A program made the translations under genes and the position numbers. The notes below the pieces were generated by a model, which saw only the letters and a program-made list of their open reading frames with translations, made no database searches and had not been told where the DNA came from. From assembly GCA_025677605.1 (NCBI GenBank), contig GCA_025677605.1_4110.1: a stretch of DNA of 64,000 nt; one strand, written 5' to 3'. Below, piece by piece: positions 33,656-52,459 of the stretch (the first letter of the stretch is position 1; each line of letters starts with the position of its first letter). The stretch comes from a phage.

Positions 33656-33734
33656 AGATAGTTACTCACCGTTATTAACTATATATTTTAGATACACCTA
33701 TGCACCCGGTGGGCTAGTTTTTGTCTATGCGTAT

Positions 33735-33767
33735 ATAATAGCAAAGGGACTGACCGGAGTCAATCCC
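33735..33767 (-). promoter_or_regulatory. R-module copy 1: terminator hairpin with embedded promoter
   Basis: Hairpin GGGACTGAC / GTCAATCCC 33746..33767; -35 TTGACT 33758..33763; 17 bp; -10 TATTAT 33735..33740; conserved core 33699..33717. Confidence 0.5.
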
Positions 33768-33785
33768 TTTTTTTATTCTTTTTTG

Positions 33786-33986
33786 TTAGATGATCTTCCA
33801 ATCTTCCACGATCATTGTAAGATACCGAACCATCGATTCGAGTGATTCGAATTCACGATAATCTGTCGCCCCACCAGCGGTACAAGTACAGCCGATTAAG
33901 CCGGATTGTAGTTCCTGGATCTTTACGTCGATCAGGTTAGCTTTAGCATCTTTCAGTACTTCAACCAGGGCGATAGCGATAGACAT
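33786..33986 (-). CDS. Hypothetical small protein
   Basis: 66-aa ORF with its own promoter and hairpin; contains a Chi site. Confidence 0.55.
   Translation of the reverse strand: MSIAIALVEVLKDAKANLIDVKIQELQSGLIGCTCTAGGATDYREFESLESMVRYLTMIVEDWKII
33871..33878 (-). other. Chi octamer (minus strand)
   Basis: Plus strand reads CCACCAGC; inside a CDS. Confidence 0.8.
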
Positions 33987-34008
33987 AATGTTTTACTCCA
34001 AACTATTG

Positions 34009-34069
34009 GCGGGAGAACTATTCCCCCGCTCTATGTAAAACATTATACACTATATGATAGTACTGTCAA
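34009..34069 (-). promoter_or_regulatory. sigma70-type promoter plus leader hairpin
   Basis: -35 TTGACA 34064..34069; 16 bp; -10 TATAAT 34042..34047; hairpin GCGGGAGAA / TTCCCCCGC 34009..34029. Confidence 0.65.
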
Positions 34070-34075
34070 ATAGTT

Positions 34076-34333
34076 TTATGAGATATCCTCGATATAGTCG
34101 GCCCATTTCATTTTTTCAGTACTGTCAAGTGCAATCGGATTGTTAGGATCAAACCATTCACCATTACCGCAATACATCCCCACGGCAACGGTTTTATATC
34201 CATCCTGGGCCGTATTCCATGCAAGGCCACGATAGATACGGCCTTTAACTGGTTGCAGTACTGGTAACGTTTTATGGTCTTCTACGTAGGCCATAGCTTG
34301 AGGATTTACCCGATATTGTGTGAATTGTTCCAT
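34076..34333 (-). CDS. Hypothetical small protein (paralog of 34416..34682)
   Basis: Track ORF trimmed to MEQFTQYRV; the extension MFCIGEISSP is a translation of the promoter and hairpin. Confidence 0.6.
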   Translation of the reverse strand: MEQFTQYRVNPQAMAYVEDHKTLPVLQPVKGRIYRGLAWNTAQDGYKTVAVGMYCGNGEWFDPNNPIALDSTEKMKWADYIEDIS

Positions 34334-34355
34334 GATGTTTCCCCTTTTAATATTG

Positions 34356-34410
34356 GGGGAGGATATCTCCCCTATGCAAAACATTATACACTATCAGTTA
34401 GTACTGTCAA
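34356..34410 (-). promoter_or_regulatory. sigma70-type promoter plus leader hairpin
   Basis: -35 TTGACA 34405..34410; 16 bp; -10 TATAAT 34383..34388; hairpin 34356..34372. Confidence 0.65.
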
Positions 34411-34415
34411 TACTA

Positions 34416-34682
34416 TCAATTAAATTTAGGATGTATTTCAATGTAGTCACAATAAGGAAAATATTCAATATAACGCGTAGTGATTGGATGTAACGGATCG
34501 GACCATACACCGTCACCCTCATAGCGTGCTATTGGGCCTTTTAAGTACTTTTGTTGTTTCCTTGACCAGTATATGGATTGATAGACTACACCAACGGCAG
34601 GAACAACGAGCGGGAGCATAGAGTGATCTAATACAACGGATTGATAATTTTTATTATAGCGATATGTTGTTTTCTTTTTCAT
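34416..34682 (-). CDS. Hypothetical small protein (paralog of 34076..34333)
   Basis: 88 aa; shares the pattern ..LP..P..G..Y....W......Y......Y.G.G.W.DP..PI. Confidence 0.6.
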   Translation of the reverse strand: MKKKTTYRYNKNYQSVVLDHSMLPLVVPAVGVVYQSIYWSRKQQKYLKGPIARYEGDGVWSDPLHPITTRYIEYFPYCDYIEIHPKFN

Positions 34683-34734
34683 TGTTAACCTATTATAGAA
34701 ATTATTAAGGGGATATTATCATCCCCTTTTATTG

Positions 34735-34959
34735 TTATACTAGATTATTTAATCCTCTTATGGTTGATGCTTTTTCTTCTTTCTCCCATTGGCGGTAATA
34801 CTTCCATGCTTCGTGATAGGTGGCGATCAGTTTATCTTTCTCTTCCTGGGGGCTATTCAGGAATGTATCCCGATAATCAGTACTATAGATTACATCGAAT
34901 GGTTTTTTCTCAAAGGCCAGGTCTGCAACTACTGATTCAAGTACTTCGTATGTGGTCAT
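34735..34959 (-). CDS. Hypothetical small protein
   Basis: 74-aa ORF. Confidence 0.55.
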   Translation of the reverse strand: MTTYEVLESVVADLAFEKKPFDVIYSTDYRDTFLNSPQEEKDKLIATYHEAWKYYRQWEKEEKASTIRGLNNLV

Positions 34960-34977
34960 GATATTACACCTTTTAGT

Positions 34978-35034
34978 GGGGGAGGATATCTCCCCCTATG
35001 CAAAACATTATACTTTGTTTTACTTACTATGCAA
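34978..35034 (-). promoter_or_regulatory. sigma70-type promoter plus leader hairpin
   Basis: -35 TTGCAT 35029..35034 (overlaps the stop of the upstream gene); 16 bp; -10 TATAAT 35007..35012; hairpin 34978..34996. Confidence 0.65.
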
Positions 35035-35290
35035 GTACTTTTTTCATATAAAGGTTATATTCTACACCGCCGTAACCTTCTACGATGATATGTTTTGCGT
35101 TATCACGTTTGCACATAGTGAAACCGTTGTTGATGTGTTCTGCATTTTCCAGGGATACATCACCGATAGCGGCACATACAGCACTTATAACAGTATTCCG
35201 CAAAGTACTGGTATCGTTAGCGGTCATAGTAGTTTGCAGTACTACGTTGTCGTATACGTGTGCATTGATAGTGATTTCGATAGTGTTCAT
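35027..35290 (-). CDS. Hypothetical small protein
   Basis: 87-aa ORF; GGAG SD. Confidence 0.6.
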   Translation of the reverse strand: MNTIEITINAHVYDNVVLQTTMTANDTSTLRNTVISAVCAAIGDVSLENAEHINNGFTMCKRDNAKHIIVEGYGGVEYNLYMKKVLA

Positions 35291-35308
35291 GGTGTATCTC
35301 CTGGACTT

Positions 35309-35369
35309 GAGGGGAAACCATTTCCCCTCTCGATATAAAACATTATACGTTAATCTAACTACAATGCAA
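35309..35369 (-). promoter_or_regulatory. sigma70-type promoter plus leader hairpin
   Basis: -35 TTGCAT 35364..35369; 16 bp; -10 TATAAT 35342..35347; hairpin GAGGGGAAA / TTTCCCCTC 35309..35329. Confidence 0.65.
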
Positions 35370-35376
35370 GTACTTT

Positions 35377-35568
35377 TTAAATTTTATTTCCGATATAGTC
35401 CGGCCTATTCTTTTCAGTCATACGCTTTGCTAATGTTTGTATATGGCTTATCGCGTTTAAGGTGTCTTCCTCCAGGGATGAATCAACATAATCAGGATCA
35501 TTCTTAACCTTGCAATGATTATGATAGCGTAGTACTGCAAGTACTTTTTTAACTTCTTCAACTGTCAT
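35377..35568 (-). CDS. Hypothetical small protein
   Basis: 63-aa ORF; ATGA coupling to 35565..35837. Confidence 0.55.
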   Translation of the reverse strand: MTVEEVKKVLAVLRYHNHCKVKNDPDYVDSSLEEDTLNAISHIQTLAKRMTEKNRPDYIGNKI

Positions 35569-35837
35569 AATAAGTATTCCACTTCGTTAGCTTTCAGGTT
35601 AGTATCAATCATTAGTGGATTTTTGTAGTCCACAAAACGTTTAGTTTTCTCGATAGCGAAGCCCATATAATCCATCTTGCTTACAGTGCATTCATTCTTA
35701 AAAACTTCTTTCGCTGCATTGATGGCTGATTCCATTGATAACCGACCATCTAAGTTAATATTTCCAAATGATCCACCAGCAGAAGTAGGATTACCGTTCA
35801 TATCTTTAATGATCATAGTAGCGGAGTAGCTAGACAT
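35565..35837 (-). CDS. Hypothetical small protein
   Basis: 90-aa ORF; contains a Chi site. Confidence 0.6.
   Translation of the reverse strand: MSSYSATMIIKDMNGNPTSAGGSFGNINLDGRLSMESAINAAKEVFKNECTVSKMDYMGFAIEKTKRFVDYKNPLMIDTNLKANEVEYLL
35773..35780 (-). other. Chi octamer (minus strand)
   Basis: Plus strand reads CCACCAGC; inside a CDS. Confidence 0.8.
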
Positions 35838-35859
35838 AATTTTGTTTCCTTTTATTGGT

Positions 35860-35918
35860 GGGGAGAACTATTCTCCCCTTGATGTAAACTATTATACAGT
35901 ACTGATATACTTTGTCAA
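35860..35918 (-). promoter_or_regulatory. sigma70-type promoter plus leader hairpin
   Basis: -35 TTGACA 35913..35918; 16 bp; -10 TATAAT 35891..35896 (TG-extended); hairpin GGGGAGAA / TTCTCCCC 35860..35878. Confidence 0.7.
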
Positions 35919-35924
35919 GTACTT

Positions 35925-36329
35925 TTATTCGCCCATATAGATTAGATTATCATCGCCCACATAGGGATCGCAAACGTTGATTTCTTCGCAGTACTTAGTG
36001 AATACATCGTCATAGTGACCGATATCACGATCCCAAAAGCCAGTACCGTGACCTTCGCGAGTAAGAAAGAGATCATGACCTGCATGATTATAAGTATAAT
36101 CAGGATTATGGTGTTTTTGTACTGCTTCCATTTCATTACTAAACTTTTCAAGGAAACGAGAACATGCAATCACCGCCGCTTGATGGGCTTGCTCTGATAA
36201 TTCGTAATCTTCCAGGTAGTCGCCGTTCTCATTGTGTACAGTACTGAATTGCATAGCTTCAATGTAACCAGCGACCATAGCAGCATGATTTTTATCGTTG
36301 GCGATGTTCCGGGCTTGATTAGTAGTCAT
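35925..36329 (-). CDS. Hypothetical protein
   Basis: 134-aa ORF. Confidence 0.6.
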   Translation of the reverse strand: MTTNQARNIANDKNHAAMVAGYIEAMQFSTVHNENGDYLEDYELSEQAHQAAVIACSRFLEKFSNEMEAVQKHHNPDYTYNHAGHDLFLTREGHGTGFWDRDIGHYDDVFTKYCEEINVCDPYVGDDNLIYMGE

Positions 36330-36348
36330 GATTTTATTCCTTTGTGCT

Positions 36349-36407
36349 GGGGAGAACTATTCTCCCCTTGATGAAAACTATTATACAGTACTAAGATACT
36401 TTGTCAA
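36349..36407 (-). promoter_or_regulatory. sigma70-type promoter plus leader hairpin
   Basis: -35 TTGACA 36402..36407; 16 bp; -10 TATAAT 36380..36385; hairpin 36349..36367. Confidence 0.7.
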
Positions 36408-36410
36408 TAC

Positions 36411-36632
36411 TTAATTACGTTTAAAATGATATGTGCCTTTATCATCCTGTACGCCCCATACTGATTTACCATCAACACCAGTGAAGCCGGATTGTAATTC
36501 AATATGGAAACCATTATTATCAACTACAAAAACTTTTTTATTTTCATCCCGATAACATTGATATTCTGAATCAACATTAAAGGCCGCATCATTCAGAAGA
36601 TTGGAAGCGTAAATGCAAGTCATTGTAGTCAT
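36411..36632 (-). CDS. Hypothetical small protein
   Basis: Track ORF 36411..36707 trimmed to MTTMTCIY; the extension covers the hairpin and promoter. Confidence 0.55.
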   Translation of the reverse strand: MTTMTCIYASNLLNDAAFNVDSEYQCYRDENKKVFVVDNNGFHIELQSGFTGVDGKSVWGVQDDKGTYHFKRN

Positions 36633-36651
36633 GATTTTATTCCTTATTACC

Positions 36652-36712
36652 AGGGAGAACCGTTCCCCCCTCTCGATATAAAACATTATACTTGATTCTA
36701 AGTACAATGCAA
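36652..36712 (-). promoter_or_regulatory. sigma70-type promoter plus leader hairpin
   Basis: -35 TTGCAT 36707..36712; 16 bp; -10 TATAAT 36685..36690; hairpin 36652..36671. Confidence 0.65.
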
Positions 36713-36807
36713 GTACTTTTTAAAAATAGTTTTCAGTACTGACAATACTTATATTATAGATACACTTATGCACCCTATGGGTCAGTGAGTTATCTCTCAA
36801 TGACTAT

Positions 36808-36840
36808 ATAATAGCAAAGGGACTGACTGGAGTCAATCCC
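36808..36840 (-). promoter_or_regulatory. R-module copy 2: terminator hairpin with embedded promoter
   Basis: Hairpin 36819..36840; -35 TTGACT 36831..36836; 17 bp; -10 TATTAT 36808..36813; core 36768..36785. Confidence 0.5.
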
Positions 36841-36854
36841 TTTTTTAATCTTTT

Positions 36855-37439
36855 TTATCGTGTTATAGTTACGGCTTTTACGTCGCGTTGTTTATAGTAC
36901 TGATTCCAGATATTGCGGGTTAAACCGTAATCAAGTACTTTAATCAGGCCATTGCGATCTTGGCCTATGTTCTGCTTTCTGATATCTCTTATCGTTAGTG
37001 TTGATAAGGTATCATCAACGTGTTGTAGTGCATCAGCGAAATGGTGTTGGCGTTCAATAGTGTTACGTTTGACATTGTACTTTAATTCATTGCAAGCGTT
37101 AACGTGCTTTACACTGCCTTTGCTTGCAGTACTCAAACGATCCATAACAATAAACATATTATCAGGATCGCTTAAATGCATATGCACCTTAGCAAAGTAC
37201 TGTTTAAGGTGAGGGCGGTCATAATCTAAAAAATTCCATACCTTACATTCTGTTTCATTTTGTTCTACGCCAGCGTCACAATTAGCGACCTTAATCACTA
37301 ACCGATCATTTAAAGCGAATACGATACGGGATGATCCGGCCCCGATGATCTCCAGACCAGCCAACCGACAAGCTGTAAGGATCTCTTTGTTAGTTTCCAT
37401 TTCTGCCAGTGTACGGATGAATTTAGTATAATTACGCAT
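36855..37439 (-). CDS. Small protein kinase-like protein (Ser/Thr kinase fold)
   Basis: 194 aa. Gly-loop GAGSSRIVF; VIKVA (VAIK-like Lys); catalytic-loop-like IRDIRKQN; KVLDYG (DFG-like). Confidence 0.6.
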   Translation of the reverse strand: MRNYTKFIRTLAEMETNKEILTACRLAGLEIIGAGSSRIVFALNDRLVIKVANCDAGVEQNETECKVWNFLDYDRPHLKQYFAKVHMHLSDPDNMFIVMDRLSTASKGSVKHVNACNELKYNVKRNTIERQHHFADALQHVDDTLSTLTIRDIRKQNIGQDRNGLIKVLDYGLTRNIWNQYYKQRDVKAVTITR

Positions 37440-37459
37440 TGCATTTACTCTTTAAGATA

Positions 37460-37519
37460 GCAGGGAGGTATTCCCTGCCTTGATGTGACTATTATATGTT
37501 AGTACTAATTAGATTGCAA
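37460..37519 (-). promoter_or_regulatory. sigma70-type promoter plus leader hairpin
   Basis: -35 TTGCAA 37514..37519; 17 bp; -10 TATAAT 37491..37496; hairpin GCAGGGA / TCCCTGC 37460..37478. Confidence 0.6.
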
Positions 37520-37736
37520 CAGTTTTATTTGCAATTACAGAATGAATTGCGGTTTTACCTGATTTAGTACTGAATACATTAGCACGACCATTTTCAATAG
37601 TGATGCGGTATTCACCTTTACTATCAATGAGGTTGATAAATTCAGGAGTACTAAACCGAGTTACTTTAAAAGTCAGTACATTGAGTAGGTCCACCAGCGT
37701 AGTAGTTTCTTTGATGCGTTCTAAGATATTAATCAT
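37509..37736 (-). CDS. Hypothetical small protein
   Basis: 75-aa ORF; contains a Chi site. Confidence 0.55.
   Translation of the reverse strand: MINILERIKETTTLVDLLNVLTFKVTRFSTPEFINLIDSKGEYRITIENGRANVFSTKSGKTAIHSVIANKTVAI
37691..37698 (-). other. Chi octamer (minus strand)
   Basis: Plus strand reads CCACCAGC; inside a CDS. Confidence 0.8.
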
Positions 37737-37765
37737 TTTGTTTCTCCCCGTGTTGGTATAGATAC

Positions 37766-37794
37766 ATAGTACTAAAACAATTGAGTACTGTCAA
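37766..37794 (-). promoter_or_regulatory. sigma70-type promoter (repeat copy 1)
   Basis: -35 TTGACA 37789..37794; 17 bp; -10 TACTAT 37766..37771; about 58 bp nearly identical to 38011..38070. Confidence 0.6.
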
Positions 37795-38013
37795 TTAGAT
37801 AATTGCATATTTCTTTAAAGATAATGCGTCTTGTGTTGGCTGATACTCGATACCGTTACCGTTATCTACTTTAACTAATAAACCTTTGTCAATTAGTTTT
37901 TTAATAGTCCGTTGGCCTTGTTGAAAATTGGTAAAATGTGAATCATTACGAAAGGTATAACCGTGCTTAACTGCTTCATCAATAGTTTTCTTTTCGATTT
38001 TAGATAATTTCAT
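37795..38013 (-). CDS. Hypothetical small protein, possible winged-helix DNA binder
   Basis: Track ORF trimmed to MKLSKIEKK (the extension covers the promoter). The wHTH suggestion rests only on a ..TIKKLIDKGLLVKV.. helix-strand pattern. Confidence 0.45.
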   Translation of the reverse strand: MKLSKIEKKTIDEAVKHGYTFRNDSHFTNFQQGQRTIKKLIDKGLLVKVDNGNGIEYQPTQDALSLKKYAII

Positions 38014-38041
38014 TTTGTTTCTCCCGTGTTGGTATAGATAC

Positions 38042-38070
38042 ATAGTACTAAAACAATTGAGTACTGTCAA
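38042..38070 (-). promoter_or_regulatory. sigma70-type promoter (repeat copy 2)
   Basis: -35 TTGACA 38065..38070; 17 bp; -10 TACTAT 38042..38047. Confidence 0.6.
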
Positions 38071-38321
38071 CGTGATATTAGTTTTATTTTCTTATTATAT
38101 TGTTGGTGTTCATATAGGTTTATCTTTCCTGTATTCTCGATTACTATTCTGTTGTTGGTGTCCACGTCGATTACACGCAGTTTGCCGTTGCTTAACTTCC
38201 TGGGCAATAGATTACCATTAATAAACTCATTAGCAAGCTGTACGGCCTTTGTGATGATTCTCTGTGGTGCTTTATAGTGTACCCGCAAGATATTATCTTT
38301 TGATAGTTGAACCTTAATCAT
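38067..38321 (-). CDS. Hypothetical small protein
   Basis: 84-aa ORF. Confidence 0.55.
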   Translation of the reverse strand: MIKVQLSKDNILRVHYKAPQRIITKAVQLANEFINGNLLPRKLSNGKLRVIDVDTNNRIVIENTGKINLYEHQQYNKKIKLISR

Positions 38322-38335
38322 TTTAGTTTATCCTA

Positions 38336-38361
38336 TAAAAAAGGCGGGAACTGATCCCGCC
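38336..38361 (-). terminator. Rho-independent terminator
   Basis: Minus-strand hairpin GGCGGGA-UCAGU-UCCCGCC followed by UUUUUUAU. Confidence 0.7.
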
Positions 38362-38383
38362 GTGTTGTTAGTACTGCAAGTTA

Positions 38384-38788
38384 TTAGATAACCTGGCGGC
38401 GTTTACTGTATACGGTAACACGGTTTCCCTTACGGTCATGACGGATCTCTCGTTTGTTGCGAATCAGTTCACTTGGACGCTTCAGGTTTACCAGGTGATC
38501 CGCGTGAGTCCATGCATTCGAATTTACCTGTACTTTAATATCAGAACCAGCGATAAATTCATCTTGAGCGTTAAGTACTGCTGACAGTTCATCAGCTTTC
38601 TTCTGTTCTGCTGCTGTCAGTACTGGCTCCGGTGAATTCACAATATCAGAGATTTCTTTGAACTGTACGGCCCAGCGTTGACCTTTCGGTGCGGTCGTGC
38701 CCATGTCTTTAAATGCTGCTCCTTCCTCGCGTGCAACAATACGGGCAGCTTCACGGGTAGCGTAGAATTTAGTAATCATGGTATACAT
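38384..38788 (-). CDS. Hypothetical protein (paralog of 50198..50464)
   Basis: 134 aa; shares FYATREAAR..GA.FKDMG...G.RWAV and C-terminal HDRKGNRVTVYS. Confidence 0.6.
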   Translation of the reverse strand: MYTMITKFYATREAARIVAREEGAAFKDMGTTAPKGQRWAVQFKEISDIVNSPEPVLTAAEQKKADELSAVLNAQDEFIAGSDIKVQVNSNAWTHADHLVNLKRPSELIRNKREIRHDRKGNRVTVYSKRRQVI

Positions 38789-38823
38789 CCTATTAGTTAA
38801 GTTAGTACTACAAGTTAGAGTCT

Positions 38824-38852
38824 ATTATAAAGTACTATCTGGGCAATGTCAA
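38824..38852 (-). promoter_or_regulatory. sigma70-type promoter
   Basis: -35 TTGACA 38847..38852; 17 bp; -10 TATAAT 38824..38829. Confidence 0.65.
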
Positions 38853-38874
38853 ATAGTACTTTAAATGGATTCTA

Positions 38875-39198
38875 TTACATATCTTTCTTACGTTTTACAT
38901 CGTTGTAGCGAACTGTGATTTCTTTGTTGATCTCTTTCTCAATGTGGTGAATAACTTTTTCTTTCGGGTTGAAACCTATAACCGTTTCTTTAATGATCTC
39001 CAAGCCCGTGTATTCGCCTTGTGTACCGTAACCGTAAGTAAAGGTTTCATGTCCCAGGTCTTCCCAGCGGTCGCCAATCAACGCAGACACGTAGCAAGAG
39101 TGGTAAGTATTGCCGTGTGAATCAGTCCACCGATTAACTTTAATGTCAAAGGATGTTACAATTTTCAGTTCTACTTTCTGGGTAAGGATCATAGCCAT
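38875..39198 (-). CDS. Hypothetical protein (paralog of 44672..45016)
   Basis: 107 aa; shares GNTY.S, F.YGYG and C-terminal DVKRKKD. Confidence 0.6.
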   Translation of the reverse strand: MAMILTQKVELKIVTSFDIKVNRWTDSHGNTYHSCYVSALIGDRWEDLGHETFTYGYGTQGEYTGLEIIKETVIGFNPKEKVIHHIEKEINKEITVRYNDVKRKKDM

Positions 39199-39221
39199 TT
39201 TTATTTCTCTCTTTTAGTTAG

Positions 39222-39283
39222 GAGGGGAACCGTTTCCCCTCACTCGATGTAAACTATTATACAGTACTAAGATACTTTGTCAA
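39222..39283 (-). promoter_or_regulatory. sigma70-type promoter plus leader hairpin (88-bp repeat copy 1)
   Basis: -35 TTGACA 39278..39283; 16 bp; -10 TATAAT 39256..39261; hairpin 39222..39241. Confidence 0.7.
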
Positions 39284-39286
39284 TAC

Positions 39287-39469
39287 TTATTTTTTGGAAA
39301 GTTTACGCATTAATTCTACGCTTTCTTGTGAACGTTTTGCTACCTGGCAATCTGCATGGGCAGTAAACATTTTTGTATAGTCTGACGCTTTGCCACCGAA
39401 CCGAGCGGCACGTTCACGGGCACTTGGAACTAATACAATTTCTTTCTTACAGATAGTGCACTTAGCCAT
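39287..39469 (-). CDS. Hypothetical small basic protein
   Basis: 60-aa ORF; CxxC near the N-terminus. Confidence 0.5.
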   Translation of the reverse strand: MAKCTICKKEIVLVPSARERAARFGGKASDYTKMFTAHADCQVAKRSQESVELMRKLSKK

Positions 39470-39492
39470 TTTTATTTCTCTCTTTTAGTTAG

Positions 39493-39553
39493 GAGGGGAA
39501 CCATTCCCCTCACTTGATGTAAACTATTATACAGTACTAAGATACTTTGTCAA
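39493..39553 (-). promoter_or_regulatory. sigma70-type promoter plus leader hairpin (88-bp repeat copy 2)
   Basis: -35 TTGACA 39548..39553; 16 bp; -10 TATAAT 39526..39531; hairpin 39493..39511. Confidence 0.7.
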
Positions 39554-39556
39554 TAC

Positions 39557-39832
39557 TTAAGTATTGTAAATGTCGTGAATAGTGATAAAGTTTTTACGAC
39601 CGTAAACCTGTAAATCAGTATCAATGTAGTGCTTATCAAGTACATCCTCGACGCTTAACGCGGTGTCGTGAATATCTTCATAGAATTGAGGATCTACAAT
39701 CTTGCTTAAGTCATCCGGCGTTAACTTATCGTTAAGCCATTGAACCGCCTGGATATCTGCTTCACGTTTCCAGTCTTGCAGGTTAGTAGTCAGTACTTGC
39801 TCGATTTCGTTAGCTGTCAGTAGAATCCGCAT
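39557..39832 (-). CDS. Hypothetical small acidic protein
   Basis: 91-aa ORF. Confidence 0.55.
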   Translation of the reverse strand: MRILLTANEIEQVLTTNLQDWKREADIQAVQWLNDKLTPDDLSKIVDPQFYEDIHDTALSVEDVLDKHYIDTDLQVYGRKNFITIHDIYNT

Positions 39833-39864
39833 TTTATGTTTCCTTATCAGTAGTTGATGTAAGT

Positions 39865-39892
39865 ATTATACTCGTTTACTTTCTATTGTCAA
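39865..39892 (-). promoter_or_regulatory. sigma70-type promoter (proximal of a tandem pair)
   Basis: -35 TTGACA 39887..39892; 16 bp; -10 TATAAT 39865..39870. Confidence 0.6.
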
Positions 39893-39980
39893 ACTATTTT
39901 ATCAGGGGAGTTTTTCGTATGTCTTACTCCTGGACTACTTAACGGGGTTACTTGTTTCATTCCCCGTCCTGATGTAAAAC

Positions 39981-40008
39981 ATTATACTTGATTCTAAGTA
40001 CAATGCAA
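39981..40008 (-). promoter_or_regulatory. sigma70-type promoter (distal of a tandem pair)
   Basis: -35 TTGCAT 40003..40008; 16 bp; -10 TATAAT 39981..39986; structured leader 39893..39975. Confidence 0.6.
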
Positions 40009-40039
40009 GTACTTTTTTAAAAATAGTTTTCAGTACTAG

Positions 40040-40047
40040 CCACCAGC
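40040..40047 (-). other. Chi octamer (minus strand)
   Basis: Plus strand reads CCACCAGC; intergenic. Confidence 0.8.
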
Positions 40048-40099
40048 AAACAATAGATACATTTATGCACCCGGTGGGCTAGTTTTTGTCTATGCATAT

Positions 40100-40132
40100 A
40101 TAATAGCAAAGGGACTGACCGGAGTCAATCCC
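40100..40132 (-). promoter_or_regulatory. R-module copy 3: terminator hairpin with embedded promoter
   Basis: Hairpin 40111..40132; -35 TTGACT 40123..40128; 17 bp; -10 TATTAT 40100..40105; core 40064..40082. Confidence 0.5.
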
Positions 40133-40147
40133 TTTTTTCAATTTATT

Positions 40148-40297
40148 TTATGCCTCGCGAGGGTTGCGATATGTGATAGCGTTCGGGTACATTTGTTTTA
40201 AGTTATTCCACGCCTGGTTAACACTGTATCCGCTGGACCGTATCAGTTGATGCATACCTTTACCCAAAAACGTAACTTCGAAAATGTATTCTTTCAT
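40148..40297 (-). CDS. Small hypothetical protein (49 aa, not in ORF track)
   Basis: Hand translation MKEYIFEVTFLGKGMHQLIR...NPREA; ATGA coupling to the upstream ORF. Confidence 0.45.
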   Translation of the reverse strand: MKEYIFEVTFLGKGMHQLIRSSGYSVNQAWNNLKQMYPNAITYRNPREA

Positions 40298-40467
40298 GCT
40301 ACGGCCCCCTTGTCGGCTTTACCTTTACGCCAGGACGTTACTAATTGTTCGCGTTGCCATAAGTCGAGTGATACAAAAAGTTTTGCGGTATCACCCTTCG
40401 GATATTCGCCAGTAGTACCCATCCGATAAAACAAATCTTTCAGTACTGACAATTCTACATGGATCAT
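40294..40467 (-). CDS. Small hypothetical protein (57 aa, not in ORF track)
   Basis: Hand translation MIHVELSVLKDLFYRMGTTG...DKGAVA; begins 1 nt after the upstream stop. Confidence 0.45.
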   Translation of the reverse strand: MIHVELSVLKDLFYRMGTTGEYPKGDTAKLFVSLDLWQREQLVTSWRKGKADKGAVA

Positions 40468-40468
40468 T

Positions 40469-40558
40469 TTAGATAACTCCTGCTTTGCTTAAGTAAACTA
40501 ATACGGCCTGTACTGCCATAATGATTGCAATTACTACTATGAACGGATTCATGTGCAT
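40469..40558 (-). CDS. Small hydrophobic peptide (29 aa, not in ORF track)
   Basis: Hand translation MHMNPFIVVIAIIMAVQAVLVYLSKAGVI; first ORF after the promoter and hairpin. Confidence 0.4.
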   Translation of the reverse strand: MHMNPFIVVIAIIMAVQAVLVYLSKAGVI

Positions 40559-40578
40559 AACTGTTACCCTTATATGGT

Positions 40579-40637
40579 GGGGAGAAAACTTCTCCCCTTG
40601 ATGTAATTAATTATACAGTACTGTGATACTTTGTCAA
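40579..40637 (-). promoter_or_regulatory. sigma70-type promoter plus leader hairpin
   Basis: -35 TTGACA 40632..40637; 16 bp; -10 TATAAT 40610..40615; hairpin 40579..40597. Confidence 0.7.
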
Positions 40638-40645
40638 ATACTTTT

Positions 40646-40858
40646 TTAATCTTTCAGCCAATGATCTTGGATGAATTTTTCACCGAAGCCTTGCTGCATG
40701 GATTGTAACAGGCGTTCACGGTGTGCGGCGGCAAACTGCTCAGTACTATGCGTTACACCTGGTTGATATCTGGATTCACCATTGGGGGCGATGTATTGTA
40801 CATCCCACGGTTTAGCGTTAGTATCAGACCATTTACGAACGATTAGTTGACCTTGCAT
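40646..40858 (-). CDS. Hypothetical small protein
   Basis: Track ORF 40646..40888 trimmed to MQGQLIVRK; the extension covers the hairpin. Confidence 0.55.
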   Translation of the reverse strand: MQGQLIVRKWSDTNAKPWDVQYIAPNGESRYQPGVTHSTEQFAAAHRERLLQSMQQGFGEKFIQDHWLKD

Positions 40859-42583: not shown

Positions 42584-42766
42584 TTAATCCCTTTGATACT
42601 CACATAACGCCATATCATACGCAATTGACGCTGATTTGAAATCATCGTGTCGCTCAATCTCTTTCATGTCAACATAGATGATCCATAGGTTTACGTCTTC
42701 CTGGCGTATGATAACGGCAGGTTTACCGATGATATGTGATGCCGCTAGTTCGATTGGATTAAACAT
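42584..42766 (-). CDS. Hypothetical small protein
   Basis: 60-aa ORF. Confidence 0.5.
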   Translation of the reverse strand: MFNPIELAASHIIGKPAVIIRQEDVNLWIIYVDMKEIERHDDFKSASIAYDMALCEYQRD

Positions 42767-42847
42767 TGTAGTACTCCTTATTAGATTGATATATTTTATT
42801 TACACTTCCGCACCCTGTGGGCTAGTGAGCTATCTCTCAATGAATAT

Positions 42848-42879
42848 ATAATAGCAAAATGGCTGACCGAAGTCAACCA
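42848..42879 (-). promoter_or_regulatory. R-module copy 4: hairpin with embedded promoter
   Basis: Hairpin 42860..42879; -35 TTGACT 42871..42876; 17 bp; -10 TATTAT 42848..42853; core 42808..42825. Confidence 0.45.
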
Positions 42880-42885
42880 CTTTTT

Positions 42886-44098: not shown

Positions 44099-44099
44099 A

Positions 44100-45096: not shown

Positions 45097-45309
45097 TTAC
45101 TTACTTTCTTTCGATGCTTTATGTTGTGCAACTGCCATTACTACATCAGCACGAACAAAGTTTTTAACCGTGTCAGTGTAATAATTGATTGCATCGTCTA
45201 TATCTGCGAACGTCCGATACATACCGCACCAAGATACTTTATAACCTGCTTTCACTTGTTCCAGCTTAACCAGTGATTTGTTTACTTTGATTTTAGTAAT
45301 GATAGCCAT
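45097..45309 (-). CDS. Hypothetical small protein
   Basis: 70-aa ORF; N-terminus MAIITK resembles that of 41573..41752. Confidence 0.55.
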   Translation of the reverse strand: MAIITKIKVNKSLVKLEQVKAGYKVSWCGMYRTFADIDDAINYYTDTVKNFVRADVVMAVAQHKASKESK

Positions 45310-45344
45310 TTTTTGTTTCCTCTTAGTTGTCTTGATAAAATCTA

Positions 45345-45372
45345 TTATGCCAGTACTATCAAACTATGTCAA
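45345..45372 (-). promoter_or_regulatory. sigma70-type promoter
   Basis: -35 TTGACA 45367..45372; 16 bp; -10 CATAAT 45345..45350. Confidence 0.6.
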
Positions 45373-45391
45373 TAGTACTGTGATAATATTT

Positions 45392-45535
45392 TTACTTACT
45401 TTTTGCTTTCTTTGCTGCTTCCACCTGGTCGGCCCACTCTTTACCCCATACTTGAGCATTATAGTGATACTGACAAAGAGCAACGCCCCGCTTCAAACCA
45501 GTAATAGATTTTTTACCACATTGACAAGTTTTCAT
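45392..45535 (-). CDS. Small Cys-containing protein (47 aa, not in ORF track)
   Basis: Hand translation MKTCQCGKKSITGLKRGVALCQYHYNAQVWGKEWADQVEAAKKAKSK. Confidence 0.45.
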   Translation of the reverse strand: MKTCQCGKKSITGLKRGVALCQYHYNAQVWGKEWADQVEAAKKAKSK

Positions 45536-45552
45536 TTTAGTTTCCTCTTAGT

Positions 45553-45613
45553 GGGGAGAACCATTTTCTCCCCTTGATGTAATGTATTATACTTTATCTG
45601 ATTTACTTTGCAA
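45553..45613 (-). promoter_or_regulatory. sigma70-type promoter plus leader hairpin
   Basis: -35 TTGCAA 45608..45613; 16 bp; -10 TATAAT 45586..45591; hairpin 45553..45573. Confidence 0.65.
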
Positions 45614-45622
45614 GTACTTTTT

Positions 45623-45850
45623 TTAATTTAATTCATCCAGGCAAAGGATACGCTCAACGCCCAAATCAGTTAAACTAATAGACGGCACTTGATAGGTTTC
45701 AACGTATTCTACACTCGCCCACTGACCGAACTCATTCACCGCCCAGGTATTCATTGCAAAATGTAATTCCGCACCTTTCTTATTAGTAATTACAGCAACA
45801 GTAGAAGAATTGCCAGTAGTACCAGATACGCGAGTGATTACGATAGCCAT
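45623..45850 (-). CDS. Hypothetical small protein
   Basis: 75-aa ORF. Confidence 0.55.
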   Translation of the reverse strand: MAIVITRVSGTTGNSSTVAVITNKKGAELHFAMNTWAVNEFGQWASVEYVETYQVPSISLTDLGVERILCLDELN

Positions 45851-45883
45851 TGTTTTGATTCCTATTCAGTAGTTGATGTATGT

Positions 45884-45912
45884 ATTATCGCAGTACTTAA
45901 AACTATTGTCAA
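45884..45912 (-). promoter_or_regulatory. sigma70-type promoter
   Basis: -35 TTGACA 45907..45912; 17 bp; -10 GATAAT 45884..45889. Confidence 0.6.
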
Positions 45913-45920
45913 ACTATTTT

Positions 45921-46073
45921 TTAAAGTTTATCAATGATTGATGCCGTTTCATTGATAGTCTTGCCGTGTTTTGCACACGCGATAACTGCTTTAAATTCCT
46001 TTGATGACCAATCTTTTTTACTGCATACTGACATTACTTGTAAAGTGAAACAATCCAGTTCATAAGTATTCAT
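45921..46073 (-). CDS. Small hypothetical protein (50 aa, not in ORF track)
   Basis: Hand translation MNTYELDCFTLQVMSVCSKKDWSSKEFKAVIACAKHGKTINETASIIDKL; GAGGA SD. Confidence 0.45.
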   Translation of the reverse strand: MNTYELDCFTLQVMSVCSKKDWSSKEFKAVIACAKHGKTINETASIIDKL

Positions 46074-46117
46074 CTTTATATCCTCAGTTAGTTAAGGTGT
46101 CTCGCCTTGATGAAATT

Positions 46118-46145
46118 AATTATACGCTAATCTCTTAATCGTGCA
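46118..46145 (-). promoter_or_regulatory. sigma70-type promoter
   Basis: -35 TTGCAC 46140..46145; 16 bp; -10 TATAAT 46118..46123. Confidence 0.6.
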
Positions 46146-46211
46146 AGTACTTTTTATTAGTTTTTGCAAAATACTTTAAACGCCCGCAATCGCATTCTAA
46201 CGACCTTAACG

Positions 46212-46219
46212 CCACCAGC
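46212..46219 (-). other. Chi octamer (minus strand)
   Basis: Plus strand reads CCACCAGC; intergenic, inside a 9-bp-stem inverted repeat (ATTCTAACG / CGTTAGAAT). Confidence 0.8.
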
Positions 46220-47772: not shown

Positions 47773-47805
47773 GTATTTTAATAAAAAGTATTTGAAAAAT
47801 AGTTC

Positions 47806-47834
47806 TTGACAACTGCATCCAATACTGGCATAAT
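47806..47834 (+). promoter_or_regulatory. sigma70-type promoter on the opposite (plus) strand
   Basis: -35 TTGACA 47806..47811; 17 bp; -10 CATAAT 47829..47834; no ORF downstream. Confidence 0.6.
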
Positions 47835-47840
47835 TACTAC

Positions 47841-47947
47841 ATAAAGACAAAACAGTCTCTAACCCACCGGGTGCATAGATCCGTCTATTAAATGATTCAG
47901 TACTGAAAAAAGAAAGGGGATCAATTGATCCCCTCGTTGTTATTTTG
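47841..47947 (+). ncRNA. Candidate small RNA carrying the R-module conserved core
   Basis: Lies between the plus promoter and the hairpin AGGGGATCA / TGATCCCCT (47915..47934) plus a U-rich tail. Contains AGAC-loop-GTCT and the core CTAACCCACCGGGTGCATAG. Confidence 0.3.
47905..47934 (-). terminator. Bidirectional terminator
   Basis: Same hairpin as above, followed on the minus strand by UUUCUUUUUU; directly downstream of the stop of 47940..48161. Confidence 0.65.
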
Positions 47948-48161
47948 TAAGGTATAAACAGAAGTCACCTTTATTTGCTACGCCGCCAGTGTAACGCGAT
48001 GAATAGTTAGAAACGTCCTGGACTTCTGCTATTACCAGTGTATCATCATTCAATTCGTCGCAGAAGCAAACGGCTGGATCTTTTACGCCGATATTGTCGG
48101 CATGTTCCCGCATAGATTTAACCAGTGCTTCAAGTTGGGAAAGGGTAGTAATGTTAGCCAT
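47940..48161 (-). CDS. Hypothetical small protein
   Basis: Track ORF 47940..48191 trimmed to MANITTLSQ; the extension covers the hairpin. Confidence 0.55.
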   Translation of the reverse strand: MANITTLSQLEALVKSMREHADNIGVKDPAVCFCDELNDDTLVIAEVQDVSNYSSRYTGGVANKGDFCLYLTK

Positions 48162-50056: not shown

Positions 50057-50149
50057 GTACTTTTTATCAAATAGTTTTCAGTACTGGCATTGTACTTAAT
50101 CACTTTACTATAGATACACTTCCGCACCCTATGGGCTATCGCCTTGTGT

Positions 50150-50191
50150 CCGGCTTGTAAGTATTATCTCACTAAGCCGGATAATGGTCAA
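50150..50191 (-). promoter_or_regulatory. R-module copy 5: hairpin with embedded promoter
   Basis: Stem CCGGCTT 50150..50156 / AAGCCGG 50174..50180; -35 TTGACC 50186..50191; 17 bp; -10 GATAAT 50163..50168; core about 50121..50139. Confidence 0.4.
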
Positions 50192-50197: not shown

Positions 50198-50464
50198 TTA
50201 TTCAAGTACTGCAATCTTTTTAGTACTGTACACGGTAACACGGTTTCCCTTGCGGTCGTGCTTTATTTCTACCACTCGACGCGATACACTATCAGGACTT
50301 TTTAACGCCGCTAACCAGTACTGAATTGATCGGGCTGTACTTTGCTTTACTACGGCCCAACGTTTACCCCTGGCTGATTGTACGCCCATATCTTTAAACG
50401 TTGCACCGTCAACCTTTGCCGCTTGCCGAGCTTGTTCACGCGTCGCAAAGTATATAATATTCAT
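50198..50464 (-). CDS. Hypothetical protein (paralog of 38384..38788)
   Basis: Track ORF 50198..50518 trimmed to MNIIYFATREQ; shares the FATRE..R..A...GA.FKDMG and HDRKGNRVTVYS blocks. Confidence 0.6.
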   Translation of the reverse strand: MNIIYFATREQARQAAKVDGATFKDMGVQSARGKRWAVVKQSTARSIQYWLAALKSPDSVSRRVVEIKHDRKGNRVTVYSTKKIAVLE

Positions 50465-50546
50465 GCTGTTACCCCTATCGTTGTTGTATAAAAGAAATCT
50501 ATTATAAAGTACTATCACCGTGCAATAGTACTTTTAATCTATTCTC

Positions 50547-50786
50547 TTACATGCCAACCATTGCAGCACGGATCGCAGTAGTGCTATACTTGAATCCGTC
50601 CGGTGTTTTATCTTGTCCAGTCTGTTCTAAAAATAGCATCATATGACGGGCCGCATCATTTCGATTAGTGTTAGCGGCAATAAAGTCCAGGGCCAACCGG
50701 TATAATGATTCATCGTTATTAATCCAAAGGCTTACATTCCATTGAGTTTTGTTTTTGTGACCTAAGAACATTTTTGATTTAGCCAT
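50547..50786 (-). CDS. Hypothetical small protein
   Basis: 79-aa ORF. Confidence 0.55.
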   Translation of the reverse strand: MAKSKMFLGHKNKTQWNVSLWINNDESLYRLALDFIAANTNRNDAARHMMLFLEQTGQDKTPDGFKYSTTAIRAAMVGM

Positions 50787-50807
50787 TTTTAAATCCTCTT
50801 AATTATA

Positions 50808-50866
50808 GTGGGGAACTATTCCCCACCGGATAGAAAGTATTATACATTAATCTAATTACTTTGCAA
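50808..50866 (-). promoter_or_regulatory. sigma70-type promoter plus leader hairpin
   Basis: -35 TTGCAA 50861..50866; 16 bp; -10 TATAAT 50839..50844; hairpin GTGGGGAA / TTCCCCAC 50808..50826. Confidence 0.65.
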
Positions 50867-50879
50867 GTACTTTTTTAAC

Positions 50880-51242
50880 TTATTCGTAAATCTTGCCACT
50901 GTCAGCCCATACCAGGAAACGAGGCATATTATCCCATGCATCTTGTTTTAAGTTTAAGCCGTGCAATACTTCGGTACTTTCCATCCCAGGCACTGGTTTA
51001 CTATACACCGCAAATAGTTCGCCCATGTACTGATAAGCCATCGTTAAATCACTGGCAATCATCTTGTGGATCATCGCATCAAGCATCACAGTAGCGGCGT
51101 ATTGTTCACGCTTAAGCGGCAACATTGCAATCAATTCCCGATAAGCTGATATATGAATCTTTACAGTCTCAGCCGGAAGATCTTTCATCTCTTCGCGAAA
51201 GTTAACCAGGTTAGCAATGATTTTAGTGATTTGAGTCGCCAT
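50880..51242 (-). CDS. Hypothetical protein
   Basis: 120-aa ORF. Confidence 0.6.
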   Translation of the reverse strand: MATQITKIIANLVNFREEMKDLPAETVKIHISAYRELIAMLPLKREQYAATVMLDAMIHKMIASDLTMAYQYMGELFAVYSKPVPGMESTEVLHGLNLKQDAWDNMPRFLVWADSGKIYE

Positions 51243-51298
51243 CGTTTTAATTCCTATTAAAGTGAGTTAGGAGCGTTTCCCCCGTCTCGATGTAAAAC

Positions 51299-51326
51299 AT
51301 TATACGCCCTTAAACATAGTATGCAA
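51299..51326 (-). promoter_or_regulatory. sigma70-type promoter
   Basis: -35 TTGCAT 51321..51326; 16 bp; -10 TATAAT 51299..51304. Confidence 0.6.
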
Positions 51327-51534
51327 GTACTTTCTACAAATACTTTTAAAATAGTTTTCTTTCTATATAGGAGTACTATCATTCAGTACTGAATCAATCC
51401 AGTGGTACAATTATTCAGTACTATACCCTTAAAACGGCCTCAATCGCGTTCTAACGCATTAATACACCTAAGCTATACATTTGCACCACTCCCAACAATC
51501 CAGGGCTTTACGGGCCGTTTAAACACCAGTACTG

Positions 51535-52044
51535 TTAAGAGTACTTTTTAAAATATTTTATTATTGTTTCCTTTGTAACTCCAAATTTTCTACCCAATGC
51601 AGTAGCACCATAAACGCGATCCCCTGGCTTATAATGTGTTATAATGTATTGTGTATCGTCGGCGGTCAAACGTGCCTTATCGTTATCATATCCCGTTAAA
51701 CGTGGTTTAACTAATCCAGAATCAAACGCATGTTTAACATTTTCGCTATTGGTTGCCCATTCCAACGCGGTGTAATGATTGTTCGCCTTTCCCTTTAAAT
51801 GATTAACTTGAACTATCTTATAGTGAGTTTTTGCAGCCCATGCGATTTGTTCCGCAGTAGGCGGTGATAGATAGTTATTAGCAACCAATCTATGAACAAA
51901 ATGATCCCCATCGTTTAACGATACTCTTTGATAACCTTTTTCGGTTATACGTGGTTTAAGATTGGTTGTAGTGCCAATCTTTCTAACATCCCCATACTCG
52001 CTAACTTCATATAAATTATTTTCTTTTAGTACCTTCCATTGCAT
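51535..52044 (-). CDS. HNH homing endonuclease
   Basis: 169 aa. N-terminal YEVSEYGDVR and GYQRVSL..HRLVA (NUMOD4/HNH_3-type). VNHLKGKANNHYTALEWATNSEN is the HNH core. C-terminal HTH-like GRKFGVTKETIIKY. Confidence 0.8.
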   Translation of the reverse strand: MQWKVLKENNLYEVSEYGDVRKIGTTTNLKPRITEKGYQRVSLNDGDHFVHRLVANNYLSPPTAEQIAWAAKTHYKIVQVNHLKGKANNHYTALEWATNSENVKHAFDSGLVKPRLTGYDNDKARLTADDTQYIITHYKPGDRVYGATALGRKFGVTKETIIKYFKKYS

Positions 52045-52118
52045 ACACGATCCCCTGATGTAACATTTATTTGATACTATTATATCATAAAAATATGTTC
52101 CATCTCATAAAATAGTAC

Positions 52119-52146
52119 TTGCATTCTGTACGGCATAGCGTATAAT
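52119..52146 (+). promoter_or_regulatory. Plus-strand sigma70-type promoter followed by the R core
   Basis: -35 TTGCAT 52119..52124; 16 bp; -10 TATAAT 52141..52146; downstream GCC-loop-GGC then CTAACCCACAGGGTGCCGAG. Confidence 0.5.
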
Positions 52147-52334
52147 TACTACATAAGCCGGAAACAAGGCACTAACCCACAGGGTGCCGAGATCCGCCCA
52201 AAATTCATATAATTTAAAAAGGATACACTCCCGCACCCTAGCAGGTCAAAGCACTTTCTCAGTACTGAATCATAGTACCATAGTACGCCCCAGGATGGCA
52301 AGCAAATTAATTAAAACTTTTTACACTTAGGCTA

Positions 52335-52363
52335 TTGCTTTTATAATTCAGTACTGCTATAAT
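52335..52363 (+). promoter_or_regulatory. Plus-strand sigma70-type promoter followed by the R core
   Basis: -35 TTGCTT 52335..52340; 17 bp; -10 TATAAT 52358..52363; downstream AGTC-loop-GACT then CTAGCCCACCGGGTGCATAG. Confidence 0.5.
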
Positions 52364-52459
52364 TATTTCATCAAGTCGAGAAAGACTCTAGCCCACCGGG
52401 TGCATAGTTACGCCCAAAATTCAGTACTAGATTATTTTTAAAAATATTCATCCAGGCGG

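Follow-up and report, generated by a model that had tools for sequence, protein, structure and literature searches.

An apparently undescribed, conserved structured RNA motif in the terminal repeats of RaK2-like jumbo phages, with a terminator and promoter design like that of promoter-early stem-loop cassettes

The stretch of DNA considered here is a 64,000-nucleotide (nt) piece of a phage contig (GCA_025677605.1_4110.1, GenBank assembly GCA_025677605.1), called the window in what follows; all positions without a phage name or locus label are those of the window. Its feature of interest is a repeated module, R, in which a predicted RNA segment of ~50 nt with a conserved core begins directly behind a sigma-70 promoter. 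The window has a GC content of 32-40%, and up to ~52 kb every gene lies on the minus strand. Its 33-53 kb part matches 183 phage records at ~90% identity (megablast), chiefly Escherichia jumbo phages of Asteriusvirus, including BF17, JP4, vB_Ec-M-J, G17, PBECO4 and 121Q. Judged from these matches, the window is jumbo phage DNA of Asteriusvirus (PBECO4/121Q-like) and belongs to the RaK2-like group, whose members are distant relatives of T4.

The R copies lie in a distinctive part of this genome. In vB_Ec-M-J the counterpart of the 33-53 kb part is bases 531-16462 of an annotated direct terminal repeat of 21,525 bp, and terminal repeats that have been defined experimentally or with PhageTerm measure 20,993 bp in fEgEco12 and 19,736 bp in fENko-Kae01. 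Window position ~53.54 kb aligns with base 1 of vB_Ec-M-J, which is the physical left end, and the region that holds R (33.7-52.4 kb) therefore lies inside a direct terminal repeat of ~21 kb. This repeat is a block of ~55 small open reading frames (ORFs) with no assigned function, for which Pfam and PHROGs give almost none. Between 33001 and 53000, its minus strand carries 13 perfect (12/12) sigma-70 promoters (TTGACA-16/17-TATAAT) and many further promoters that match at 10-11 of the 12 positions, almost one per small gene. The terminal-repeat location, together with a second downstream partner for GGGUGC and a published analogue of the hairpin-promoter, both described below, goes beyond an initial annotation of this DNA that had first pointed to R.

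R copies in the window

The 16-nt core CTARCCCACMGGGTGC, searched with up to 2 mismatches, occurs at 8 sites in the window, where 0.01 would be expected. Five of these are on the minus strand (33702, 36770, 40067, 42810 and 50124) and three on the plus strand (47859, 52172 and 52388), as the initial annotation had it. When both strands of the 64 kb are scanned without filters, a covariance model derived from relatives scores the same 8 sites at 38-60 bits and picks up one decayed partial copy, but nothing further. The start of each of the 8 copies coincides with the +1 predicted for a sigma-70 promoter whose -35 and -10 hexamers are 16-17 bp apart, and these promoters, too, are those that had been annotated: TTGACT-17-TATTAT at four minus-strand copies, TTGACC-17-GATAAT at the fifth, and TTGACA-17-CATAAT, TTGCAT-16-TATAAT and TTGCTT-17-TATAAT on the plus strand, the last two read directly from the letters.

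A terminator hairpin had been proposed for each minus-strand copy. It is present at four of the five, where it encloses the -35, but the copy at 50124 has none. In these four copies a 12-bp hairpin, GGGAUUGAC-UCCG-GUCAGUCCC, is followed by UUUGCUAUUAU; its 5' arm holds the -35, its loop is a UCCG/UUCG tetraloop, and the U-tract serves at the same time as the promoter spacer and the TATTAT -10.

The minus-strand copies come in long forms, which have a first hairpin termed P1, and short forms, in which the P1 stem is deleted. Copy 1 (33686..33770, minus) is a short form with its hairpin at 33770-33743, its -35 at 33763 and a TATTAT that ends at 33735; from the predicted +1 at ~33728, R extends to 33686 and is followed by a Chi site (33655-33648) and a second promoter (33622..33594). 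The other short form, copy 3 (40051..40135, minus), has its hairpin at 40135-40108 and its promoter at 40128..40100, followed by a Chi site (40047-40040) and a second promoter. Copy 2 (36754..36843, minus) is a long form that scores 60.3 bits, with the hairpin at 36843-36816 and the promoter at 36836..36808. Its P1 is UGAG-AGAUAA-CUCA, its core CCC-AUA-GGGUGC and its 3' arm GUAUCU, after which come AGTACT and a second promoter. Copy 4 (42794..42883, minus; hairpin 42883-42856, promoter 42876..42848) is also a long form, and its 3' arm is cut at ~42801 by an inserted ORF of 60 amino acids (42766..42584). As a result, this copy is a direct 5' untranslated region, with a Shine–Dalgarno (SD) sequence and ATG following. 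The annotated conserved module keeps its core in this copy, but an insertion inside the element has cost it the 3' arm.

Copy 5 (50108..50191, minus) is a long form without a terminator hairpin, and its promoter (50191..50163) overlaps the end of the upstream ORF. Its P1 is GCC-GGACACAA-GGC, with AGTACT and a second promoter downstream, and vB_Ec-M-J has a different R pair in its place. An inverted repeat, CCGGCTT...AAGCCGG, spans the -10 of this promoter (50180-50150, minus), its 3' half being the 5' arm of P1, and is kept in three other genera (L003 ~7278, L017 ~6060 and L006 ~8717). Two basic paralogous ORFs on the minus strand (38384-38788 and 50198-50518) have the motif HDRKGNR in common, and one of them stops exactly at the promoter of copy 5.

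The plus-strand copies face the other way. Copy 6 (47806..47947, plus; 55.7 bits) stands alone and runs antisense to the genes around it; it consists of a promoter, R, CAGUACUG and a bidirectional terminator. The promoter is at 47806..47834, the predicted +1 at ~47841, R at 47841-47890, the octamer CAGTACTG at 47898 and the terminator, already recognized as bidirectional in the initial annotation, at 47915-47934. From this layout, a small RNA of ~105 nt is predicted. The antisense unit is conserved from Asteriusvirus to RaK2: a search with the stretch 47835-47905 finds it in 47 records of phages on Escherichia, Salmonella and Klebsiella, every one of them RaK2-like. An orthologue of the unit is retained in at least 42 records, and that of RaK2/K64-1 is 79% identical.

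Copies 7 and 8 lie in a non-coding terminal stretch of ~1.5 kb and are directed at the physical end of the genome. Copy 7 (52119..52203, plus) has its promoter at 52119..52146 and R at 52153-52203, with a strong pairing, GGGUG/CGCCC, in the helix termed P2b below; copy 8 (52335..52419, plus) has its promoter at 52335..52363 and R at 52370-52419. Facing copy 7 is the decayed partial copy on the minus strand (52217..52268; 16.1 bits, E 0.065), from which the CCC strand is gone. Its P2b-type hairpin (52239-52220), AGGGUGCG-GGAG-UGUAUCCU, runs into UUUUU, and the decayed copy therefore looks like a terminator. A second decayed R-like stretch, CCACCCAGGGTTACTACGCCCAAAATCCGTCAGTACT, is found at 52760-52818 (plus), with no evident promoter and an E of 4 in the covariance model.

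The terminator with an embedded promoter is also found outside the repeat, at 6047..6087 (minus), after a gene on the capsid side, as had been annotated. Here TTGACT-17-TATTAT lies in and after the hairpin (6087-6047), no R core or element is present, and the hairpin-promoter goes straight to SD and ATG.

A published analogue of this design is the promoter-early stem-loop (PeSL) cassette of T4-type phages, a composite terminator/early-promoter motif found in hyperplastic regions (PMC2839356, PMC4122927). Both combine a terminator stem-loop with a sigma-70-type early promoter, as seen in 4/5 minus-strand R copies and at 6087-6047, and both recur among the small ORFans of plastic early regions, represented here by the ~55 small hypothetical ORFs of the repeat. 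Some PeSLs lie at indel or replacement boundaries of close relatives. In the comparison with vB_Ec-M-J and 121Q, two breakpoints fall at R modules, 42585/42801 (inside the 3' arm of the copy at 42810) and 50086/50189, while most are elsewhere. The two designs also differ. The PeSL stem-loop is just upstream of the promoter, whereas R modules have the -35 inside the stem and use the U-tract as spacer and -10. A PeSL has the SD and start codon of the following gene as its end, whereas R modules insert an RNA of ~50 nt and usually a second promoter; only the copy at 42810 leads directly to SD and ATG, owing to the insertion. A core like that of R has not been described for PeSLs, which lack a conserved transcribed element, so that R is added to the design and does not belong to the PeSL itself.

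Structure and conservation of R

Copies for comparison were taken from vB_Ec-M-J, G17, fENko-Kae01 and RaK2, from a pattern scan of IMG/VR, which added 121Q, GAP32, CBB and putative contigs of the Yersinia phage fHe-Yen9-04, and from a metagenome scan. This gave ~150 distinct copies, 142 of which make up the aligned set, from phages of Escherichia, Klebsiella, Salmonella, Yersinia, Cronobacter and Pectobacterium as well as from metagenomes. In all window copies and the ~150 found elsewhere, the predicted start of R lies 6-7 nt past the -10 hexamer and is marked by an invariant CA. The RNA is ~50 nt long, and 2-4 unpaired nt at its 5' end are followed in the long forms by P1, a hairpin of 3-5 bp with a purine-rich loop of 6-8 nt (for example, AGAUAA, GAGAAA, GCGAAA or AGAACAA). 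Among 102 loops, 75 end in AA and 59 contain GNRNA. In the short forms, which include the copies at 33702 and 40067, an A-rich run alone is left. Downstream of P1 the order is a YURR linker, CCC, 3-4 variable nt, GGGUGC, five mostly purine nt and U-[G/C/A]-Y-R-Y-C-Y.

P1 is the best supported part of this fold. At least 20 different compensated stems are seen, for instance UGGC/GCCG, GCC/GGC, AGCA/UGCU, UGAG/CUCA, AGAC/GUCU, UCCA/UGGA and GGAG/CUCC. Its covariation is 0.40, compared with 0.15 in column shuffles (0/500 reach 0.40) and at most 0.056 when the partners are slid, and this was repeated in an independent metagenome set (0.38 vs 0.14); the alignments used were fitted to the model, which favours structure, and the raw stem list gives the same result. 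A small covarying stem had been proposed in the initial annotation and is thereby borne out in two independent sets, except that its TAG/CTA stem in the copies at 33702 and 40067 is not homologous to P1, since both are short forms from which P1 has been deleted.

The remaining part of R can pair in two ways. In the helix P2a, RCCC pairs with GGGU across a loop of 3-4 nt. CCC and GGG are invariant and the flanking base is only ever A or G, opposite an invariant U, which leaves little covariation possible; a compensated change of the inner pair (CCU...AGG) is seen in two copies. The loop varies in sequence and length, with 16 types of 3 or 4 nt. The palindrome CACC-N-GGTG, which had been put forward as a possible protein-binding box, is limited to the copies with an ACC loop (15/142). 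The middle letters vary while CCC and GGG stay fixed, which points to a small hairpin and not to a symmetric DNA site.

In the second helix, P2b, GGGUGC pairs with the downstream G-Y-R-Y-C-Y across a purine-rich loop of 6 nt. Here 91% of the cells pair, compared with 32-66% when the partners are slid, and at the two columns that vary most, each of the 142 copies retains a pyrimidine facing G and a purine facing U, with all four combinations represented. P2b is followed by a U-run in the decayed copy and in some copies of GAP32 (L014) and CBB (L015). Both helices use the same GGGU and are thus mutually exclusive. Evaluated separately, their energies differ by a median of 0.1 kcal/mol over the 142 copies; RNAalifold yields P1 with P2a, and minimum-free-energy folds of single sequences mostly give P1 with P2b. 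The P2a/P2b segment is thus probably two-state, or bistable.

Other pairings were considered and set aside. A pseudoknot in which AGAUA of the P1 loop pairs with UAUCU of the 3' arm suits some copies but not those with GAGAAA or GCGAAA loops, and a closing helix formed by AUAGA at the 5' end with UCUAU is inconsistent between copies, above all in the CGCCC class. A GGA of SD or CsrA type in the P2b loop is present in only 71/142 copies.

R is limited to a single region of at most 20 kb per genome of ~350 kb in whole-contig pattern scans. This region is at 225.9-246.3 kb in RaK2, 143-153 kb in 121Q, 8-19 kb in GAP32 and 0-9 kb in the putative fHe-Yen9-04 contig, and a putative CBB record that holds both repeat copies has R at both ends. 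In fENko-Kae01, 10/10 copies fall inside the 19.7-kb repeat as annotated, and the 19 kb that follow are free of R. The block of small early genes contains R in all relatives that were examined. The genera that carry R share only ~23-29% genome-wide average nucleotide identity with Asteriusvirus. Across them the core is unchanged while the flanking stems and loops have diverged, which argues that selection acts on R and that it did not arise by recent duplication.

The orientation of R is informative for its possible function. Among 71 distinct copies with enough flanking sequence, 45 are sense to the local genes and 26 antisense. By an automatic test, an antisense copy meets a terminator hairpin in 8/26 cases and a convergent R copy in 9/26, within ~25-50 nt; among the other nine, a further promoter comes next in three, and the test detects nothing in six, which by eye have terminator-like hairpins that fall below the strict test. 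Sense copies meet a terminator in only 2/45 cases; downstream of them lies a second strong promoter with a gene behind it or, rarely, SD and ATG directly. The stand-alone layout of promoter, R and terminator is also found in RaK2, fENko-Kae01 and other relatives.

Where two R copies converge in relatives, they flank an AT-rich palindrome, GAGAATGATAATCATT(C/T)(T/A)C (L003 7311-7324, L004 30699-30712, L006 914-927, L007 252-265 and L017 6093-6106). It matches the Fur-box consensus at ~15-16 of 19 positions, and could equally be a bidirectional hairpin. This palindrome between facing copies is found in relatives and not in the window.

As the initial annotation had supposed, R corresponds to no known RNA family. 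Rfam 15 gives no match at gathering score in the 64 kb, a relaxed search (E up to 10) of ~47780-47960 gives terminator-type chance matches only, and ARAGORN finds no tRNA or tmRNA. Resemblances of R to a tmRNA segment, the anticodon stem of tRNA-Thr and CRISPR repeats were considered, and no tool result supports any of these. A 51-nt R copy has no blastn match in 5,426 E. coli genomes or 72,556 plasmids, and a host or plasmid origin of R, or mimicry, was rejected on this basis. The motif was not found in the literature searched, where the core strings occur by chance in unrelated papers, and published accounts of CBB, fEgEco12 and phAPEC6 make no mention of it.

Possible functions of R

Very probably, R is a conserved structured RNA element. 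On the pattern of compensated changes it is a small element at the RNA level rather than a DNA box. One of its hairpins is firmly supported, and R apparently represents a real and so far undescribed motif of RaK2-like terminal repeats. The proposal of a family of small RNAs or leaders in the initial annotation is strengthened by the stem covariation, by a promoter +1 at every copy and by the stand-alone, terminator-ended units of several genera.

The explanation that we tentatively favour is a multicopy immediate-early small RNA or leader module that may act in trans by binding a factor. E. coli sigma-70 RNA polymerase would start transcripts at the near-consensus promoters of the terminal repeat, with R as their first ~50 nt, so that the promoter-plus-R unit would itself be a functional gene and many copies of the RNA would be delivered in the first minutes of infection. 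R could be released as a free RNA of ~100 nt whose end is set by a terminator or a facing copy. Alternatively, it could be carried as the 5' end of early mRNAs. In either case it might be bound by a host or phage factor, serving as a decoy or a recruiting handle. We infer the transcription start, the accumulation of the RNA, its action in trans and its partner from the arrangement of the module. The promoter-plus-R unit occurs in either orientation and is closed off at once when it faces the genes, which suggests that the RNA itself is the product, and this looks like the simplest reading that covers all contexts. The stand-alone units, with a promoter, a predicted RNA of ~105 nt and a terminator, are like multicopy ('sibling') small RNAs, whose paralogues share a block. 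They differ in that the R block is at the extreme 5' end, lies in alternative helices and not in an open seed, and also heads mRNAs.

Several points weigh against this explanation. The starts, ends and abundance of R are all predicted from sequence, and no partner protein was found among 53 ORFs of the repeat region. Downstream of most sense copies there is a second strong promoter and no terminator, and these copies could give discrete small RNAs only through processing. R is always at the 5' end and never internal, which is equally compatible with a function in cis. The conserved letters sit in helices and not in an open seed or loop, which is unusual for base-pairing small RNAs and for proteins that recognize loops, and part of the invariance of the core may merely reflect the double pairing constraint on GGGU, which may by itself explain it. 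The support for P2b is one-sided variation, its sole compensated position (C55G with C62) giving p = 0.1, which is not significant. Finally, the folding energies of single copies are no better than those of shuffled sequences (z +0.5 to -2.8), save for stretches that take in a terminator or a facing copy.

A bolder reading is possible but doubtful. R would here be a new class of bistable immediate-early regulatory RNA, ~50 nt long with two hairpins and transcribed early in infection from 8-10 copies in the RaK2-like terminal repeat, that acts directly on a host machine. Such an RNA might reprogram the transcribing RNA polymerase without boxA or N, or soak up a host RNA-binding factor of defence or decay.

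The constant position of R at the 5' end keeps a role in cis plausible, and one form this could take, which we consider unlikely, is an antitermination or polymerase-modifying leader. By itself or together with a small phage protein, the nascent RNA would make the polymerase resist the terminators between early genes and so give a delayed-early programme of read-through. The lambda and P22 nut sites consist of boxA (CGCUCUUA-like) and a boxB hairpin with a GNRA-like pentaloop, and HK022 put acts in cis without a protein. Like these, R would be a short structured element of nascent RNA just past early promoters, always within ~55 nt of a strong one, in a terminator-rich region, with two adjacent hairpins as in put. 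Four copies lie exactly at points of termination and restart, and the short P1 has a purine-rich loop that often fits the boxB-type pattern GNRNA (59/102, as above). However, P1 loops have 6-8 nt and not the five of boxB, the short forms lack P1 altogether, and R is present in 8-10 copies per genome instead of two. The boxA-type YGCTCTTWA has 0 matches in the whole window, and the 53 ORFs of the repeat region contain no recognizable RNA-binding or antiterminator domain and no N-terminal arginine-rich motif like that of lambda N, although such proteins are small and hard to recognize. A nut site reads into its operon, whereas 26 of the 71 R copies are antisense and nearly all of these are closed by a terminator or a facing copy; read-through from them would give antisense RNA and head-on collisions. 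In addition, nearly every gene has a consensus promoter of its own, so read-through is not needed for expression.

A second possibility in cis, and quite an unlikely one, is that R works as an attenuator or a 5' stabilizer, with P2b as a weak terminator, P2a as an anti-terminator and P1 as a shield from decay that depends on the 5' end. The switch between P2a and P2b would determine whether transcription stops or pauses soon after it has begun. The two mutually exclusive and nearly isoenergetic helices on the shared GGGU recall an attenuator or riboswitch, and UUUUU directly follows P2b in the decayed copy (52239-52220) and in GAP32 (L014) and CBB (L015) copies. P1 begins 2-4 nt from the predicted 5' end, which is the geometry of hairpins that protect E. 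coli mRNAs. In most copies, though, P2b is followed by AUAG or AUUA and not by a U-tract, and neither helix is a canonical terminator or sequesters a ribosome-binding site. The whole device measures ~25 nt, with no recognizable aptamer and no evident ligand or sensing domain. The stand-alone antisense copies have nothing downstream to regulate, and the short forms do without P1.

R as a DNA-level element with a functionless RNA is improbable. It would be an operator below some early promoters, or a recombination hot spot that spreads as a PeSL-like promoter cassette. This would suit the two homology breakpoints at or inside R modules (42585/42801 and 50086/50189), the PeSL-like hairpin-promoter, the occurrence of R in both orientations and the palindrome CACCGGGTG of the ACC-loop copies. 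Against it, the compensated changes seen in P1 and P2a call for a folded single strand, the distance from -10 to core ranges over 15-29 nt and that between CCC and GGG over 3-4 nt, and the palindrome is missing from ~90% of copies. Recent duplication or gene conversion cannot explain an invariant core with diverged flanks across genera, and most breakpoints of synteny are away from R modules. Lastly, although mechanical ORFs overlap some copies, chance similarity or a remnant of duplicated coding sequence is refuted by the excess in the window, by ~150 distinct copies in phages of six host genera and metagenomes, and by indels that are not multiples of three and variation that tracks base pairing instead of codon positions.

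R is the most strictly conserved non-coding sequence of the RaK2-like terminal repeat. RaK2-like jumbo phages are in development for therapy, while ~80% of their genes and their whole early programme are uncharacterized, and R can serve as a concrete entry point into the way in which they take over the host. The ~150 distinct copies could seed a new RNA family, and the terminator with embedded promoter, combined with R, could be reused in synthetic biology as a natural 'stop and restart' insulator of transcription.

Short motifs and neighbouring features of the repeat

The hexamer AGTACT is found within 50 nt downstream of 65% of R copies, mostly 3-8 nt past the element, compared with a locus background of 28%. 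It is frequent in the whole window (269 vs ~22 expected), as is the octamer CAGTACTG (58 vs 0.8 expected), in coding and non-coding DNA alike; two 4-kb bins, 20-24 kb and 28-32 kb, hold neither. In promoters, AGTACT occurs directly 5' of the -35 (AAAAAGTACTTGCA) and directly 5' of the -10 (AGTACTGTATAAT), and it is dense near the predicted genome end, with examples at 47898, 52260, 52349 and 52831-53544. A stereotyped cassette recurs on the minus strand between 33001 and 53000, namely AAAAAGTACTTGCA-N16-TATAAT-GTTTTACAT-N-(A)GGGGAGAA-ATG.

Chi sites (GCTGGTGG) are also enriched, with 8 where 0.38 would be expected. All are on the minus strand and inside the terminal repeat, at 33648, 33871, 35773, 37691, 40040, 41033, 41301 and 46212 (span 33648-46219). 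Two are just downstream of R copies and two are inside a terminator stem or coding region, and Chi is adjacent to R copies in fENko-Kae01 and 121Q too. By strand polarity, this is the orientation that would be read by RecBCD coming in from the right-hand end of the genome.

Among the 53 ORFs of the repeat region, Pfam matches include a ParE-like toxin domain, a protein kinase domain and a NUMOD4 motif. Non-coding short tandem repeats at 52588-52756, 53339-53393 and 53591-53651 adjoin the predicted genome end at ~53.54 kb. They consist of CCATCTAG repeated 11 times, a 23-mer repeated 2.4 times and 10-mers of the ATGATTA type, and could be candidate sites for packaging or for recognition of the genome end.

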